Position numbers and translations under genes: made by a program. The notes below the pieces were generated by a model that worked only from the letters and a program-made list of their open reading frames with translations, did not search any database and was not told the DNA's origin. Shown here one piece after another: positions 45,676 to 63,975 of a DNA stretch of 64,000 bases (position 1 is the first letter of the stretch; every line of letters begins with the position of its first letter). This stretch comes from an uncultured virus (IMG/VR IMGVR_UViG_3300023176_003360) (Duplodnaviria; Heunggongvirae; Uroviricota; Caudoviricetes): the IMG/VR virus record IMGVR_UViG_3300023176_003360; one strand, 5' to 3'.

Positions 45676-45765
45676 TGGCGGAGAGTGTGGGATTCGAACC
45701 CACGAAAGGTATGATCCTTTAACGGTTTAGTAGACCGCCGCCTTCAACCACTCGGCCAACTCTCC
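45676..45765 (-). tRNA. tRNA-Ser(ACT), rare anticodon
   Basis: Long variable arm, G73, anticodon stem-loop GCGGT-CTACTAA-ACCGT, CCA. Confidence 0.9.
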
Positions 45766-49198: not shown

Positions 49199-49289
49199 TG
49201 GTGCCAGGACCAGGATTCGAACCTGGATCAGCCAATTATCTGTTGCTACGGAGTATAAGCCCGCTGTTTTACCGTTAAACTATCCTGGC
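49199..49289 (-). tRNA. tRNA-Ile(TAT) with long variable arm
   Basis: GCGGG-CTTATAC-TCCGT anticodon arm, extra stem-loop, canonical T-arm, A73-CCA. Confidence 0.8.
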
Positions 49290-58887: not shown

Positions 58888-59959
58888 TAATTATTATTTC
58901 AGCAGGTACGTTGTCCTGTGTTATGTTTAGATTCACATTGCCGTCACGCTCTGTATTAATATCTGCTATGTGTGGAACACGTTCCGAACGAACAAAGACG
59001 CCTTGTTCGTTGTAGTAACTTTGATTTTTAATCCAAGGATACTTGTTGATTGTAGGAAGTACACCATCAAATTCTTCCATAGCATCACCAAGATCACCTT
59101 TGGTTAAGTCTAGCAAGTTATCTAAGAAATCACCACCATATTGATCTCTATCTAGTTCATTTTTTTCTAATTCGTCATTTGCTAACAGGTCTTTCATTAG
59201 TTCGTCAAATTCTAACAAGTCTATATCTAAAAAACTTGATGTAGTTTGTTCTTCGTCACTGGTTTGAAATCCTTTTGGAAACTGATAAGGTGGACTAATA
59301 ATAAGCAGATTGCTCAGTGTTGGCTTGTCAGTAAGTATTTTTGGTTTTGAAGGACGAGCAAAGGCGCTGGATACGACAGTACTTTCGTAAGGGCGATTCA
59401 TAATAACGTATCCAGCACCAGTGCTGACCATGATTTCACCTACGGGGCAATTATTTTCGTCGTCTTTGTTTTCTATAAGACCAAAGTCGGGGCATGAAGG
59501 GAGGAGCGTAACCATACTTTGTCCTATTTCATTTACAACCATTGCGAAGTCAGTACCACGTACTGACACGGTTGCTGTAGGTGTTCTAAGACGAACGTTT
59601 TCGGGGTTATTTTTAGCGACACCACCACTCGCATAACGCACAGTTCCCATCGCAACAGTCATAGCCAATTTACCCGTTTGAGCATTTGGGTTATAAGCAA
59701 ATTCGTCGATGATAAACTGTGATCCTTCTATCACTGCTACCTTTGTGTTGTCTTCAAAGGTTAGTGCTAGTTTTGTGTTTTTAGTTTCAATAGCATCATT
59801 CATTTCAAGGCCCACACCCTTTTTGGCCGTAAGGGTATCCTTGTCCCGATACAATGAGGCGTCAGGACCTTGTTGCTCTGTGATAGAGCCAATCTCTGCA
59901 AAAGCAGAGGTTATGAACAGTAGACTACAGACCGTCGCCCTGAGTAATGTTGATCTCAT
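58844..59959 (-). CDS. FecR-domain periplasmic protein
   Basis: D.I.T, F.D.T, G.VRYASG, TPTATVSVRGTDF. Confidence 0.85.
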   Translation of the reverse strand: MRSTLLRATVCSLLFITSAFAEIGSITEQQGPDASLYRDKDTLTAKKGVGLEMNDAIETKNTKLALTFEDNTKVAVIEGSQFIIDEFAYNPNAQTGKLAMTVAMGTVRYASGGVAKNNPENVRLRTPTATVSVRGTDFAMVVNEIGQSMVTLLPSCPDFGLIENKDDENNCPVGEIMVSTGAGYVIMNRPYESTVVSSAFARPSKPKILTDKPTLSNLLIISPPYQFPKGFQTSDEEQTTSSFLDIDLLEFDELMKDLLANDELEKNELDRDQYGGDFLDNLLDLTKGDLGDAMEEFDGVLPTINKYPWIKNQSYYNEQGVFVRSERVPHIADINTERDGNVNLNITQDNVPAEIIINGGSSVEINIIQNQ

Positions 59960-60608
59960 TGCCTGTACCGTCTATTGTTAGGTCCACTACTCCTGATTCC
60001 GTTGTACTATCTTGTGTTATGTTAACTATGTTGCTGTCACTGCCTGCTGTGGTTCCACCGATGCTTACTTTAACTTCTGTAGTTCCATCAGTACCTGTGA
60101 TACCGCTTCTGCCAATAGCAATTTTGTTACTGTCAGATGAGTTAGCAATGTCAATGTCTACGCCAATGTAGTCCTGACTCATATCAGTTCCACACACAGC
60201 ATCTGTTACACTGCTTGCCGCTGTTGTTACTGTTCCACAAACATCTACTTTGTTACTAGAACCAACCACGTTTACATCAATTGCTGGGTCACTAACTGAA
60301 CCTAAATCAATATTAAGTTCGTTGCTAGAACCATCTTGTACAACATCAATGTCTGGTGCTGTTGTTGATGATCCTGTTTCGATGTCAACGGTGTTGCTTG
60401 ATCCGTCTTGTGAAATGTCGATATCGGCGCTAGATCCGTTAATGGTTGTTCTTTCACTTGAACTACCTACACGGTTTCCATCACCTTGTTGTGTTATGTC
60501 AATAGTCGAAGATGAACCTGCTTGATCAAGATATACATCAGCCGCTTTAGCCGTTGTTACTCCTATCATTAATGTTATCATCGCTATCCAAGTTATCTTG
60601 TTTAGCAT
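59925..60608 (-). CDS. Curlin-like (CsgA/CsgB-type) repeat protein
   Basis: Signal peptide (AKA-A), repeats I.I.Q.G..N. AAGGAG RBS before the ATG at 60608. Confidence 0.75.
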   Translation of the reverse strand: MLNKITWIAMITLMIGVTTAKAADVYLDQAGSSSTIDITQQGDGNRVGSSSERTTINGSSADIDISQDGSSNTVDIETGSSTTAPDIDVVQDGSSNELNIDLGSVSDPAIDVNVVGSSNKVDVCGTVTTAASSVTDAVCGTDMSQDYIGVDIDIANSSDSNKIAIGRSGITGTDGTTEVKVSIGGTTAGSDSNIVNITQDSTTESGVVDLTIDGTGNEINITQGDGL

Positions 60609-61515
60609 TTTCTCGCTCCTTTTGATCTGCCCCTTGCACGACAGACGTTTGTTTAAATTCGAAAGGCTCACTCAATTTCCAGTAACCCTTTCGTTCCCCC
60701 TCTTTGATCACTTCTACTACCGCTTGATCAATTGCCGCCCTCACAGCATAACCAACCGGTTCATTAATAGTGTGACCTGCTTCTATTTCTGCCGCCTGTG
60801 TACCCATATCAAAGAATCTAAAGAACGTAAAACTATTACCTGTGCTTAGTATTGTTTTGGTAGTGCTTACTGTTATTATTACTTCTCCTGTGGTAACTGC
60901 GACAACTCGCATACTAACTGTCACAACATCTTGTCTATATTGTGTACTAGGACCAATACCTAGGTATCTTGCTCCGGCCCCGCCTGTTAGTATATTGCTA
61001 TCATAGCCTGTGATGCCTCCCTCCACTATCATACCTGCCTGCATCAATGGCGGTAGTGGTTTATCCTTACACTGTATCGTATCAGGATTAATGCCCTTCT
61101 CTTGGGCTAGTTTTGCTTTTTCTTTTTCACAAGCATCTTCAGCAAACTGCTGTCTTGCTTGTCTTATAATCTGTCTTTCTTTAGTAAGACTGTCGAGGTT
61201 TACACGTTCAACAACTGTGAACCACTCGCCTTTTCCTACATCTTGTAGTGCGTTTATCACCCAAGCATCTGCGCCTTGTGTAACTGCGTAACTGATATTA
61301 CTGAACTTTTCACCTGGTTTACGCTGTCCTGTTAGATCCTTAAAACTGTAAACAGCAACCACAACTTTTCCACGTTCTGGTTTTGGAACAGCATCAAAGT
61401 CGCTTACCATGCTGGGCTCAATTGCTTTAGGCAGTTCAGGTTTATGTACAGGTTGCATGGTAGCACACCCTGTAACCAAGGCAAGTGTTAATAATAAAGT
61501 TGCTATAAGTTTCAT
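60547..61515 (-). CDS. csgG: Curli secretion channel CsgG
   Basis: Lipobox VTGC, VAVYSFKDLTGQRK, AVTQGA, WFTVVER..L..L.KERQII, GGAGARYLGIG, NEPV. Confidence 0.93.
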   Translation of the reverse strand: MKLIATLLLTLALVTGCATMQPVHKPELPKAIEPSMVSDFDAVPKPERGKVVVAVYSFKDLTGQRKPGEKFSNISYAVTQGADAWVINALQDVGKGEWFTVVERVNLDSLTKERQIIRQARQQFAEDACEKEKAKLAQEKGINPDTIQCKDKPLPPLMQAGMIVEGGITGYDSNILTGGAGARYLGIGPSTQYRQDVVTVSMRVVAVTTGEVIITVSTTKTILSTGNSFTFFRFFDMGTQAAEIEAGHTINEPVGYAVRAAIDQAVVEVIKEGERKGYWKLSEPFEFKQTSVVQGADQKERENAKQDNLDSDDNINDRSNNG

Positions 61516-61977
61516 TTAAAAAGCAAAGTCCCCAACAGGTGTTTCAAACTCACTTGCTAGATTTCCATTACTGTCGTAGATCTCAACATAGATTACACCA
61601 TTCTCTCTTTTCCATTTGATAGTATCACCAAATGGTGTTTCACTTTCTGCCCATTGACCGTCTACTATATCGCCGCCTTCGCCAAACAGGCTATCAGCAA
61701 TATTCTTAGATAATTGAGCATAAATTCTTGATTCTAGGTTGTTTTTGAACTTGTACATATTGGTGCTCTTTTCTTCACGCTCTGCTTTGTCAATTGCGGC
61801 TTGAGCATCCTCTTTGTTTTTGTCTTTTCTTTGTTGTTCAAGTTGATGTATTGTAAGAACGTGTGTGCTATATCCTTGTCCACTGAAACTCGGGCTCTTA
61901 AAATCGTGTGTCAATTCGCCAGAGAAAGCGGTTGTAGCAAACATCATGGTTACAATAATTGTGCTAATTTTATACAT
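61516..61977 (-). CDS. csgF: Curli assembly protein CsgF
   Basis: Signal peptide then ELTHDFKSPSFSG, and F..NLESRIYAQLS. Confidence 0.85.
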   Translation of the reverse strand: MYKISTIIVTMMFATTAFSGELTHDFKSPSFSGQGYSTHVLTIHQLEQQRKDKNKEDAQAAIDKAEREEKSTNMYKFKNNLESRIYAQLSKNIADSLFGEGGDIVDGQWAESETPFGDTIKWKRENGVIYVEIYDSNGNLASEFETPVGDFAF

Positions 61978-62062: not shown

Positions 62063-62452
62063 TTAAATTGGAGTATTATGAACTTGTAGTTCTTCTAAAC
62101 CGTGTTCACGATCGATATATTTGGTATCAACCTTGATAGGTTTGTACTGCTGTAACCATGCTAACACTATTTGTGGATCAAAAGGTCCACAGGTATAAAC
62201 GTCAAGTTGAATTATAGCAGGATCGCATTCGTCCCACGTGTGCATTACAATGTGTGAAGTTTCTATGATTGCGGCAACTGTTAGTCCTCTGTTACCGGGC
62301 ATGGTCACATACTTTGCATATGGACCCATAAGCAGTTTCATGCCTATGCGATCTATCAGATCTTTAACGTGTTCGCTTGCTAGTTTTTCTACTGTGGGCG
62401 GATTTAGCACTTCCGCTCTAATAATAACATGTTTGTGCACCAACGGCTCCAT
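62063..62452 (-). CDS. speD: S-adenosylmethionine decarboxylase proenzyme
   Basis: IIETSHI..HTW, LDVYTCG. Confidence 0.85.
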   Translation of the reverse strand: MEPLVHKHVIIRAEVLNPPTVEKLASEHVKDLIDRIGMKLLMGPYAKYVTMPGNRGLTVAAIIETSHIVMHTWDECDPAIIQLDVYTCGPFDPQIVLAWLQQYKPIKVDTKYIDREHGLEELQVHNTPI

Positions 62453-62495
62453 TAACAAGTACCAGATCTATTTATGATCAAGGTCATAAAATAGA

Positions 62496-62579
62496 TGGTG
62501 CTCTAGGAGAGATTCGAACTCTCACGCCTTGCGGCACTGGTTCCTAAGACCAGCGTGTCTACCGTTCCACCACCAGAGC
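62496..62579 (-). tRNA. tRNA-Leu(TAG)
   Basis: Loop CTTAGGA, long variable arm, CCA. Confidence 0.93.
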
Positions 62580-62580
62580 A

Positions 62581-62656
62581 TGGTAGTCCGTAGGGGAATC
62601 GAACCCCTCTTTCCGCCGTGAAAGGGCGGTGTCCTAAACCGATAGACGAACGGACC
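62581..62656 (-). tRNA. tRNA-Glu(TTC)
   Basis: Loop CTTTCAC, CCA. Confidence 0.93.
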
Positions 62657-62660
62657 ATAA

Positions 62661-62722
62661 TCTAGTGCTTTAGAACTTGACAGGTAAACCATGAATCGCT
62701 GTTCTACAGTTTTAGCACTAGA
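62661..62722 (-). ncRNA. Candidate hairpin small RNA in the tRNA-Glu 5' leader
   Basis: Outer stem TCTAGTGCT/AGCACTAGA, inner stem TAGAAC/GTTCTA, 24-nt loop. Confidence 0.5.
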
Positions 62723-62763
62723 ATAATAGTTAACAGTACACTCTTTCGAGCATACTGTCAACC

Positions 62764-63285
62764 TTATTTTATCCTCAACTCCTCTATGTTTATAGGAGTA
62801 AAGTTAATTTGTTCCACACAAACACACCTGTGATTTGGTGTAGGACTAGGGTTAGTGTGTATGTGTCCATGCACGTTAACCATTTTGGTGTCCTTGAACC
62901 TACCTTCACCCAATGTGCTGTTGTGTACAGGAACGTGTGTTAAAAGCAATCCAAACTCTGGAAACATTCTCCACACGTCAATTTTAGCAACCAACTCGTG
63001 TTTAGCAAAGAACTTGGCATCATCGTGGTTGCCCAATATCAAACGCTTTTGACCGTTAAGTCTTTTCCAAAGCGTCTTGAATGTGTCCTTGTTGCCAAAG
63101 AACACGTCACCCAAGTGATACACTTTGTCGCCAGGTTTCACAACACTGTTCCAGTTGTCCACCATGGTTTCATCCATGTGTTCTACACTGTCAAACGCAC
63201 GAACAGGCTTGCCATCACTATCCTTAAAGGTCAAGATATTGCTGTGCTGAAAGTGCGTGTCGCTTATTACCCATATGTTTCTCAT
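62764..63285 (-). CDS. Calcineurin-like metallophosphoesterase
   Basis: SDTH, GD, GNHD, H, HGHIH. Confidence 0.9.
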   Translation of the reverse strand: MRNIWVISDTHFQHSNILTFKDSDGKPVRAFDSVEHMDETMVDNWNSVVKPGDKVYHLGDVFFGNKDTFKTLWKRLNGQKRLILGNHDDAKFFAKHELVAKIDVWRMFPEFGLLLTHVPVHNSTLGEGRFKDTKMVNVHGHIHTNPSPTPNHRCVCVEQINFTPINIEELRIK

Positions 63286-63303
63286 GTATCACCTCTTATA
63301 AAT

Positions 63304-63377
63304 TGGAGTGGACGACAGGAATCGAACCTGTATGGATGGATTTGCAATCCACTGCGTAACCATTCCGCCACGCCCAC
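63304..63377 (-). tRNA. tRNA-Cys(GCA)
   Basis: Loop TTGCAAA, U73, CCA. Confidence 0.92.
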
Positions 63378-63380
63378 AAA

Positions 63381-63450
63381 GTGGAGACCTTTCTCGAGGG
63401 CGCCTCCTATTCCCGCCTGATCTTATATGTAGGGGCTCAGGCCTAACCAC
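63381..63450 (-). ncRNA. Candidate structured spacer RNA between tRNA-Trp and tRNA-Cys
   Basis: GC-rich. GCCTGA/TCAGGC hairpin and GGAGGC...GTCTCC hairpin. Confidence 0.35.
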
Positions 63451-63470
63451 GTTTATACTCGTACCCTATT

Positions 63471-63544
63471 TGGCACCGGAACAAGGAATCGAACCTCAGT
63501 TTGCGGTTTTGGAGACCGTCGTGTTACCACTACACCATTCCGGC
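63471..63544 (-). tRNA. tRNA-Trp(CCA)
   Basis: Loop CTCCAAA, CCA. Confidence 0.93.
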
Positions 63545-63546
63545 TT

Positions 63547-63586
63547 AAAAACAAAAAACCCCCGTAAGCATTTCTACTTCGGGGGT
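63547..63586 (-). terminator. Attenuator terminator directly upstream of tRNA-Trp
   Basis: ACCCCCG/CGGGGGT stem followed by TTTTTGTTTTT. Confidence 0.85.
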
Positions 63587-63611
63587 CTAAATCTTGTTGT
63601 TGAAACAATTC

Positions 63612-63680
63612 CTACAAGATACCCCCTGGTGGTTCATAGCACCAAATACAAATGTCATTATGTAGAGTCTGTGTATTCAT
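63612..63680 (-). CDS. Putative attenuation leader peptide MNTQTLHNDICIWCYEPPGGIL
   Basis: 22 codons, TAAGGA RBS. Its 3' end can pair with the 5' strand of the terminator. Confidence 0.7.
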   Translation of the reverse strand: MNTQTLHNDICIWCYEPPGGIL

Positions 63681-63708
63681 TGTTTCGCTTTCCTTATTAA
63701 CTATATTT

Positions 63709-63737
63709 ATAATACTATCTGTTTGTGGTCTTGTCAA
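63709..63737 (-). promoter_or_regulatory. Sigma70 promoter of the leader-tRNA operon
   Basis: TTGACA-17 nt-TATTAT, overlapping TATAAATA. Confidence 0.8.
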
Positions 63738-63975
63738 CCAGAAAAGACTTAATTTTTTCAAAATTTTTCGCAGTCTGTTCTTTACCTGACTGCCAGTTTG
63801 TTTTTTGAAACTGTTTAATGTCTTCCCATTCGTTTGTTGCCCAGTTACCTATTGCTTGAGGTCTTTCGTTTAACCAAGTCCCAAACGAATTTAGTTTTGT
63901 TTGTAACTGTATGCTTACAGGTTTCTTTTCTGGTAACACTGTATTTGTTTCATTAGCCACAGCATTATTATTCAA
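63715..63975 (-). CDS. Hypothetical protein (start probably beyond the window)
   Basis: Open frame that appears to continue to the window edge. Confidence 0.5.
   Translation of the reverse strand: MNNNAVANETNTVLPEKKPVSIQLQTKLNSFGTWLNERPQAIGNWATNEWEDIKQFQKTNWQSGKEQTAKNFEKIKSFLVDKTTNR

Follow-up and report, generated by a model that had tools for sequence, protein, structure and literature searches.

How does a phage set the levels of its own transfer RNAs (tRNAs)? The question is raised by a locus in IMGVR_UViG_3300023176_003360, an uncultured virus of the Caudoviricetes, whose DNA was analysed over a stretch of 64,000 nucleotides (the window). On its minus strand, a promoter, a short open reading frame (ORF) and an intrinsic terminator stand directly ahead of a tRNA-Trp gene and a tRNA-Cys gene. 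Judging from the comparison with related loci, we consider it highly likely that this arrangement is a leader-peptide, that is, ribosome-mediated, transcription attenuator gating a phage tRNA operon. The operon would consist of tRNA-Trp and tRNA-Cys and probably also of a metallophosphoesterase gene, tRNA-Glu and tRNA-Leu, and the phage would probably make the gated tRNAs when ribosomes read the matching codons slowly.

A preliminary description of the locus had claimed a promoter, a ribosome-binding site with a 22-codon leader, an intrinsic terminator and, 2 nt behind the latter, a tRNA-Trp gene followed by tRNA-Cys, tRNA-Glu(TTC) and tRNA-Leu(TAG). The sequence holds all of these, and all four tRNA genes were called (Table 1). 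The terminator stem, GC-rich, pairs ACCCCCGAAG with CTTaCGGGGGT and is followed by a U-tract that ends 2 nt before tRNA-Trp. It carries a bulge, and the hairpin is missing from the list returned by a simple terminator scan; folding shows it clearly. The antiterminator proposed in the same description, between the last leader codons and the 5' arm of the terminator, was also recovered: when the terminator 3' arm is left out, the last leader codons and the T that opens the stop codon, GGGGGTATCTTGT (63626-63614), form pairs to ACAAGAT (63597-63591) and to ACCCCC (63586-63581). The 161-nt leader as a whole folds at −43.5 kcal/mol (z = −3.57), and none of 200 shuffled sequences folded as well.

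The leader holds TGT, TGG, TGC, GAA and CTA, all codons matched to the downstream tRNAs. With the codon usage of the window, the chance that 21 codons cover all four downstream tRNAs is 0.0096. In the window by itself this match is suggestive, and it is the family comparison that carries weight. The preliminary description had credited the leader with codons for all four tRNAs; this stands for TGT, TGG, TGC and GAA, which lie in one cluster, whereas CTA is codon 6, far from the cluster, and its match to tRNA-Leu is probably incidental.

Table 1. Features of the putative attenuator locus and of the genes behind it; positions are those of the window.
Feature	Position	Strand	Basis
Sigma-70-type promoter, TTGACA-17-TATTAT	63709..63737	-	11/12 consensus positions matched
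Stop codon of the upstream ORF	63717-63715	-	inside the promoter spacer
Shine-Dalgarno-like ribosome-binding site, AAGGAAAG	63688..63695	-	sequence
Leader ORF, 22 codons, peptide MNTQTLHNDICIWCYEPPGGIL, then stop	63612..63680	-	ORF; homologous leaders in WIN-type contigs
Putative regulatory codon cluster TGT ATT TGG TGC TAT GAA (codons 11-16)	63633..63650	-	stall model and family profile
Region 1, 5' arm of the anti-antiterminator: GAAACAAU (with A and U of the start codon), UACA, ACUCU	63664..63686	-	minimum-energy fold; equivalent helix covaries in type-A relatives
Region 2: last leader codons, stop codon, AUUGUUUC	63602..63626	-	folds; partner is region 1 or region 3
Region 3: ACAAGAT...ACCCCC, antiterminator 3' arm and terminator 5' arm	63581..63597	-	antiterminator fold, −18.8 kcal/mol
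Intrinsic terminator: hairpin 63586-63558 and U-tract TTTTTTGTTTTT	63547..63586	-	fold, −16.8 kcal/mol
tRNA-Trp(cca), first gene of the proposed gated unit	63471..63544	-	tRNA call; Rfam tRNA score 60.2 bits
tRNA-Cys(gca)	63304..63377	-	tRNA call; Rfam tRNA score 62.4 bits
Metallophosphoesterase gene, probably co-transcribed	62764..63285	-	directly behind the tRNA chain in 24 relatives
tRNA-Glu(ttc)	62581-62656	-	tRNA call; probably distal part of the gated unit
tRNA-Leu(tag)	62496-62579	-	tRNA call; probably distal part of the gated unit

Related loci were collected by two routes. Retrieval with the phosphoesterase, in which no RNA pattern was used, gave 80 viral contigs; tRNA-Trp lay upstream of the gene in 35 of them, and 31 had a leader, a terminator and a tRNA chain together. 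An RNA pattern derived from these leaders then recovered at least 120 more stretches, with leader, terminator and tRNA chain in 117 of 120. The family numbers at least 149 loci, among which 76 different pairings of a leader with a tRNA chain occur. Leaders of the window's own subtype (WIN-type) were found in two pattern scans and a metagenome scan, in L201, L202, L232, L237, L239, L240 and L003 as well as in copies identical to the window; L005, L022 and L029 form a divergent subtype B. Some matches were discarded: in one WIN-type pattern scan 6 of 10 lay in unrelated coding DNA, in the subtype-B scan 7 of 10 were unrelated terminators, and in a scan of bacterial genome bins 9 of 10 were chance matches with neither tRNA nor leader. 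The tenth is a true member; its 335-kb contig, assigned to Neomarinimicrobiota, may be phage DNA placed in the wrong bin. Among cultured phages, a blastn search with the window element returned 31 records, all of them matches at the level of the tRNAs and none with a query coverage of 80%, and one with a type-A leader returned a single unrelated match, so that no cultured phage in the collection searched carries the element.

The signals seen in the window recur throughout the family. Of 79 distinct sequences, 71 have a promoter of the form TTGACN-17-TANNNT ahead of the leader, its spacer always being 17 nt, and in 78 a purine-rich Shine-Dalgarno-like motif precedes the start codon (ATG in 62 of the 79, GTG in 17). 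In 55 of 57 distinct untruncated cases, tRNA-Trp comes first in the chain. A terminator precedes 145 of 146 Trp-led clusters versus 5 of 132 other first-of-cluster tRNAs, a contrast that is inflated by the choice of most loci through the RNA pattern. The gap between U-tract and tRNA is 0 nt in 29 of 57 distinct relatives. This leaves no room for a separate promoter downstream of the terminator, which the preliminary description had named as an alternative, so that the tRNAs would be reached only by read-through. In WIN-type contigs that have tRNA-Glu behind the phosphoesterase gene, GAA is found 1-4 codons from the Trp codon of the leader, which suggests that the gated transcript runs through that gene.

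The leader codons themselves were counted without the start codon and the last four, structural, codons. Cognate codons numbered 228 of 821, versus 69.1 expected from the codon usage of long ORFs in the same loci (z = 20.6); with Trp left aside the count was 176 of 768 versus 51.8 expected. A cognate leader codon was found for 105 of 125 non-Trp tRNAs, when shuffling the chains among loci gave 70.0±4.0 and never as many in 5000 shuffles. In the 22 distinct loci retrieved independently of the RNA pattern, 59 of 63 non-Trp tRNAs were matched versus 39.0±3.5 (0/5000 shuffles). Taking the tRNAs separately, a codon for Cys was present in 33/33 leaders with the tRNA downstream versus 14/24 with the tRNA absent; the corresponding figures were 24/24 versus 24/33 for Pro, 8/8 versus 17/49 for Ser(tga), 8/8 versus 27/49 for Gln, 6/6 versus 18/51 for Tyr, 7/7 versus 12/50 for Ile(tat), 4/4 versus 14/53 for Phe and 2/2 versus 6/55 for His.

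Individual loci illustrate the correspondence. The subtype-B leader MTTMMKHIQQYCIRWFSEGGSVS of L005, in which up to ten codon types track tRNAs, precedes Trp, Ile, Tyr, Lys, Gln, Cys, Met, Arg, Phe and His tRNAs. That of L096 (..QRWCPEQ..) stands before Trp, Pro, Cys, Glu and Arg tRNAs. In L089 the leader (..IIGWPS..) has no Cys codon, and its chain, Trp, Pro, Gly, Ser, Met and Ile, has no tRNA-Cys. Within the window's subtype, L240 (..LSIIWC.., with AGT and ATA ATA) has the chain Trp, Ile(tat), Cys, Ser(gct) and Gly.

For relatedness to be controlled, independent pairs were drawn from a DNA tree in which the sensing codons were masked, and pooled over 18 anticodons. A tree of the phosphoesterase protein was dropped in favour of the DNA tree, as the gene lies directly behind the chain in 24 rows only. 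Leader codons changed with the tRNA in 17.9 pairs and against it in 1.7, with no difference in 30.4 (sign test, median p = 2×10−4, maximum 0.021); none of the 18 anticodons was significant alone. The relatives bear out the expectation of the preliminary description that leader and terminator are conserved, that the RNA covaries (in the terminator and two further helices, see below) and that leader codons track tRNA content.

Three helices compete in the leader RNA. For the terminator (3:4), 98.6% of the cells were paired in 59 type-A sequences and covariation exceeded that of all 500 shuffles, one pair changing from C-G to U-A in 17 cells. For the antiterminator (2:3), each sequence was folded without the terminator 3' arm and scored positive when at least 4 nt of the terminator 5' arm paired to the leader 3' end. 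It formed in 77 of 78 distinct sequences (mean z = −3.7 versus shuffled upstream parts), with a mean energy of −20.3 kcal/mol versus −16.8 kcal/mol for the terminator. In type A, 81.4% of the cells in its columns were paired, versus 57% when the partner was slid by one column. The arms differ across subtypes yet pair: in subtype B GGGAGTGTGT is matched to ACACACCCC, in L003 GGGGGTCT to AGACCCCC.

The third helix (1:2) was absent from the preliminary description, which had likened the locus to the trp and his attenuators; the comparison supports that layout and adds to it a covarying helix that would pre-empt the antiterminator. In all 78 full-length folds the terminator formed and the leader end was paired with the translation start region; counted over 84 full-length folds, the 1:2 helix was present in 77. 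Its type-A version has 11 pairs, with 87.4% of the cells paired and covariation above all 500 shuffles. The first base of the start codon faces the base 5 nt behind the stop codon as A-U in 42 sequences and G-C in 17, and in none is it unpaired. Covariation with codon 2 is also seen at the second position of the stop codon (C-G 33, U-A 7; the other 19 count as unpaired in their columns, for the most part because the alignment is shifted by one column). In the window's subtype the helix is built from unrelated sequence: the window has GAAACAAU opposite AUUGUUUC, and L239 has AUGCAAA opposite UUUGCAU. A further hairpin inside the leader, P1, has the codon before Trp and TGG as its 3' arm; 31 cells changed on both sides, and 0/500 shuffles did as well. 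The element has the classical 1:2, 2:3, 3:4 layout, and its 1:2 helix implies that an untranslated RNA would terminate, as in trp.

Where along the leader could a stalled ribosome open this switch? In a co-transcriptional model, the ribosome masked the RNA to 9 nt past the first base of its A-site codon and the terminator 3' arm was still unmade; the fraction of cognate codons was computed at each position relative to the Trp codon in 55 sequences. One codon before Trp (−1) the antiterminator held the terminator arm in 100% of cases, with a cognate fraction of 0.44, and at Trp itself (position 0) the two values were 100% and 0.98. They then fell together, to 96% and 0.53 at +1, 58% and 0.45 at +2, 33% and 0.20 at +3, and 7% and 0.07 at +4. 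Matches between codons and tRNAs concentrate at −3 to +2 around Trp. In the window, an A-site placed anywhere in codons 11-16 leaves 5-7 nt of the terminator 5' arm sequestered; at codon 17, which is the first CCA, and beyond, the number drops to 0 nt. As the antiterminator survives to codon 16 (GAA) and collapses at 17, TGT, TGG, TGC and GAA fill the last productive positions. Just past them come the two Pro codons; a tRNA-Pro gene is absent from the window. In 33 of the 55 sequences Trp is codon 12 of the leader (range 10-16), approximately one ribosome length from the leader start.

These elements can be combined into a model. The strong promoter would start an RNA with three mutually exclusive folds: 1:2, between the start-codon region and the leader end; 2:3, the antiterminator, between the leader end and the terminator 5' arm; and 3:4, the terminator. 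On an untranslated transcript 1:2 would form, leaving 3:4 to form and transcription to end. Under smooth translation the ribosome reaching the last codons would cover region 2, and the terminator would form again. If the ribosome stalls in the neighbourhood of Trp, which in the window means on one of the Cys, Trp, Cys, Tyr and Glu codons, region 2 would instead remain available to region 3, and the polymerase would continue into the tRNA genes. The stall codons would be those decoded by the tRNAs behind the terminator, which would make the device a negative-feedback control of supply, slow decoding yielding more of exactly those tRNAs; the new tRNAs would relieve the stall, and the loop would limit itself. 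We infer from the sequences both that the leader is translated and that read-through is regulated.

Some family members depart from this plan. The leaders of L145 and L167 stop early (..CWPPG and ..CWPPS, each followed by the stop codon), before region 2. There, a terminating ribosome would cover less of the switch, and these may be variants with altered set-points. L003 has, at ~1440-1494, a second mini-ORF (MCYNDVSEYWKWMKSNFQ, then stop) with its own Shine-Dalgarno-like motif, between the terminator and tRNA-Tyr. In L029, L052 and L064 an insert of ~77-129 nt separates the attenuator terminator from tRNA-Trp; it contains a long hairpin, ACTACACTA...TAGTGTAGT, and then TTTTAAAAAA.

Which known regulators does the element resemble? 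It has the parts of a leader-peptide attenuator: a promoter and a short ORF with a ribosome-binding site upstream, an intrinsic terminator before the first gene, an antiterminator overlapping the stop codon, a pre-empting 1:2 helix, and codons linked to the product at the stall positions. A search of Rfam with the window element gave only tRNA at the gathering score. The trpB motif (21.4 versus 59) and His_leader (17.9 versus 49) were far below threshold and were taken as chance; Trp_leader gave no match, and neither did the T-box at E ≤ 10. We rejected a classical amino-acid operon leader (Trp_leader, His_leader, Thr_leader), since no such Rfam family matched and the genes that would be regulated are tRNAs, and we rejected a T-box riboswitch, since it had no Rfam match and several codon types track tRNAs in one leader.

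The trpL attenuator, like its relatives hisL, pheL and leuL, has a promoter, a short translated leader (with Trp codons in trpL), the 1:2, 2:3 and 3:4 helices and a terminator. The phage element shares with this group the promoter, the short leader including a Trp codon, the three exclusive helices, the terminator and the predicted termination of untranslated RNA. Unlike them, it would gate tRNA genes rather than enzymes of amino-acid biosynthesis, its leader has individual codons for a number of amino acids where theirs repeat a single one, and its region 1 is the translation start region, not the regulatory codons. Multivalent attenuators are also established: the thr leader senses Thr and Ile, and those of ilvGMEDA and ilvBN sense Ile, Leu and Val. 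Here too one leader would report several amino-acid codons. In the phages, however, the codon set is rewritten from phage to phage to match the downstream tRNAs, up to ten kinds, and the product is the decoder itself and not an amino acid. Attenuation of pheST (through the pheM leader) and T-box control act on aminoacyl-tRNA synthetase genes. These resemble the phage element in that the charging or decoding state of tRNA controls a translation component through premature termination; they differ in targeting synthetase genes, and T-boxes bind uncharged tRNA directly, without a ribosome. Full-text literature searches, in which subscription journals were largely outside coverage, returned no description of attenuation of phage tRNA genes, and the matching passages of PMC2965389 mention neither tRNA genes nor phages. 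The element is outside the curated leader families and, as far as its sequence tells, works like the trp/his and thr/ilv attenuators; it differs in that the genes it appears to regulate are phage tRNAs.

Several observations weigh against an attenuator of this kind. Leader translation and regulated read-through are predictions from sequence. Every one of the 78 full-length folds favours the terminator state at equilibrium, and in an equilibrium stall scan with the whole terminator present and a ribosome mask this state wins almost everywhere; the choice made by the switch must therefore be kinetic, as is usual for attenuators. Two-sided covariation of the type-A antiterminator was no better than that of shuffles, many of its columns being fixed by the search pattern. 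A ribosome stalled at the Trp codon leaves region 1 uncovered, and 1:2 would have to be prevented from forming again by other means, through either steric hindrance or the initiation of a second ribosome. As the Trp codon lies about one ribosome length into the leader, a second ribosome could initiate behind the stalled one and cover region 1. The codon statistics have their own weak points. Tracking is one-way: two common leader types, of 11 and 10 loci, have Cys and Pro codons with tRNA-Trp alone. Some distal tRNAs are poorly matched, namely Met(cat) (3/8), Arg(acg) (2/5), Arg(gcg) (0/4), Glu (1/4) and Gly(tcc) (0/2). The sequences are related, and shuffle tests overstate their independence; the tree behind the independent pairs was made from ~250 nt of DNA by a quick search.

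Granted such an attenuator, what would set it off? Supply homeostasis, host shut-off and a tRNA-targeting defence are candidate triggers; that anticodon nuclease or starvation is the signal, as the preliminary description had it, is a guess. A more specific proposal is that the leader is a re-programmable panel of test codons, filled by every phage lineage with codons of the tRNAs that stand behind its own terminator. It would sense when precisely these tRNAs are lost in the host, for instance to anticodon nucleases, to other tRNA-targeting defences or to decay after host shut-off, and the phage would then supply replacements as needed, along with the phosphoesterase and the genes that follow. 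The element would then be a counter-defence sensor and not a simple supply governor. We regard this as possible but rather unlikely.

Less probable still is a general sensor of translation coupling, in which read-through would report the overall availability or speed of ribosomes, for instance after host shut-off, and codon identity would be secondary. In its favour, the window antiterminator stays intact for a stall anywhere at codons 1-16, many leaders have Cys or Pro codons with no matching tRNA downstream, and Pro-Pro motifs, which are intrinsically slow to translate, are common in leaders. It does not account for a codon identity that follows tRNA content beyond shuffles and under phylogenetic control, nor for the concentration of matches around Trp, and we consider it improbable.

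The small ORF might also encode a functional micro-protein, the hairpin being its leaky terminator and the tRNAs arising from constitutive read-through. The reading frame is kept in 149 loci and the peptide ends are conserved (a MFKT-like start and a RGMS-like end), as such a protein would require; but the terminal codons are the arms of the covarying 1:2 helix, and RNA pairing can thus explain why the ends are conserved, while the middle of the peptide, which is variable, changes in step with the tRNA set. Nor would a micro-protein account for the antiterminator, whose overlap with the stop codon is seen in 77 of 78 sequences, and we hold this reading to be very improbable. Quite as doubtful is a translation-independent RNA device (the terminated transcript of ~130 nt acting as a small RNA, or a protein or tRNA binding the leader directly in T-box fashion), which would suit a highly structured leader with three covarying helices (terminator, 1:2 and P1) but not the conservation of a ribosome-binding site, a start codon and an in-frame stop inside the switch, nor the tracking of tRNAs by up to ten codon types in L005, which a single specifier cannot explain, nor the lack of a T-box or any Rfam family at threshold other than tRNA itself.

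The proposed attenuator lies in a large phage genome, with genes for a clamp loader, an ATP-dependent protease and an endonuclease, an ORF of 2196 amino acids, and all large ORFs on one strand. In a comparison to cultured phages, its phosphoesterase is at most 62% identical to that of DSS3 phages. Salt-marsh metagenomes and metatranscriptomes contain near-identical DNA. In four salt-marsh RNA libraries, contigs span leader, terminator and tRNA-Trp (X15, 62400-63638; X18, 63524-63686; X2, 63348-63836), their ends varying between runs (63547, 63528, 63638). These data consist of contigs, with depth given as a mean per contig, which cannot rank leader versus tRNA, and DNA carry-over is possible; RNA contigs across the terminator are compatible with read-through molecules and carry no information on the strength of attenuation.

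Within the tRNA region, the spacer between tRNA-Trp and tRNA-Cys (63378-63470, minus strand) is 93 nt long, and ~95-105 nt are kept in the window's subtype. Its position is occupied by tRNA-Ile(tat) in L240 and by tRNA-Pro in type-A loci. Folding revealed no unusual structure in the 93 nt (z = +0.81), and the spacer may be a decayed tRNA. Right behind the phosphoesterase stop codon and ahead of tRNA-Glu, a 36-nt stretch (62728-62763, minus strand) forms a 16-pair hairpin without a good U-tract, which may be a processing or weak termination site. A homologue of S-adenosylmethionine decarboxylase (PF02675; 62063-62458, minus strand) follows directly behind tRNA-Leu and is possibly in the same transcription unit. 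Just downstream, at 59925-61977 (minus strand), are curli-type secretion genes, CsgG (PF03783, E = 1.7e-51) and CsgF (PF10614, E = 3e-12), and a third protein with a curlin repeat (PF07012). Elsewhere in the window, at 45676-45765 (minus strand), aragorn called a tRNA-Ser with the anticodon ACT, unusual for its A at position 34, which recurs in L052, L054, L058 and L066-L068. Calls of tRNA-Ile(tat) of 91-94 nt, long for tRNA-Ile, were obtained at 49199-49289 (minus strand) in the window and at 2823-2916 in L063; an insertion, or ends that were placed wrongly, may account for this.

The textbook device by which bacteria adjust amino-acid synthesis to demand is leader-peptide attenuation. Its logic appears here to control the tRNA genes of a virus, with sensor codons rewritten to match the tRNA cargo. 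If this is true, it would explain how phages set their own tRNA levels, and the leaders would be an indicator, readable from sequence, of the decoding steps that limit a phage in its host. They would also provide a compact natural part reporting the decoding speed of chosen codons. The family is large and varied, and amounts to a ready-made set of natural mutants.

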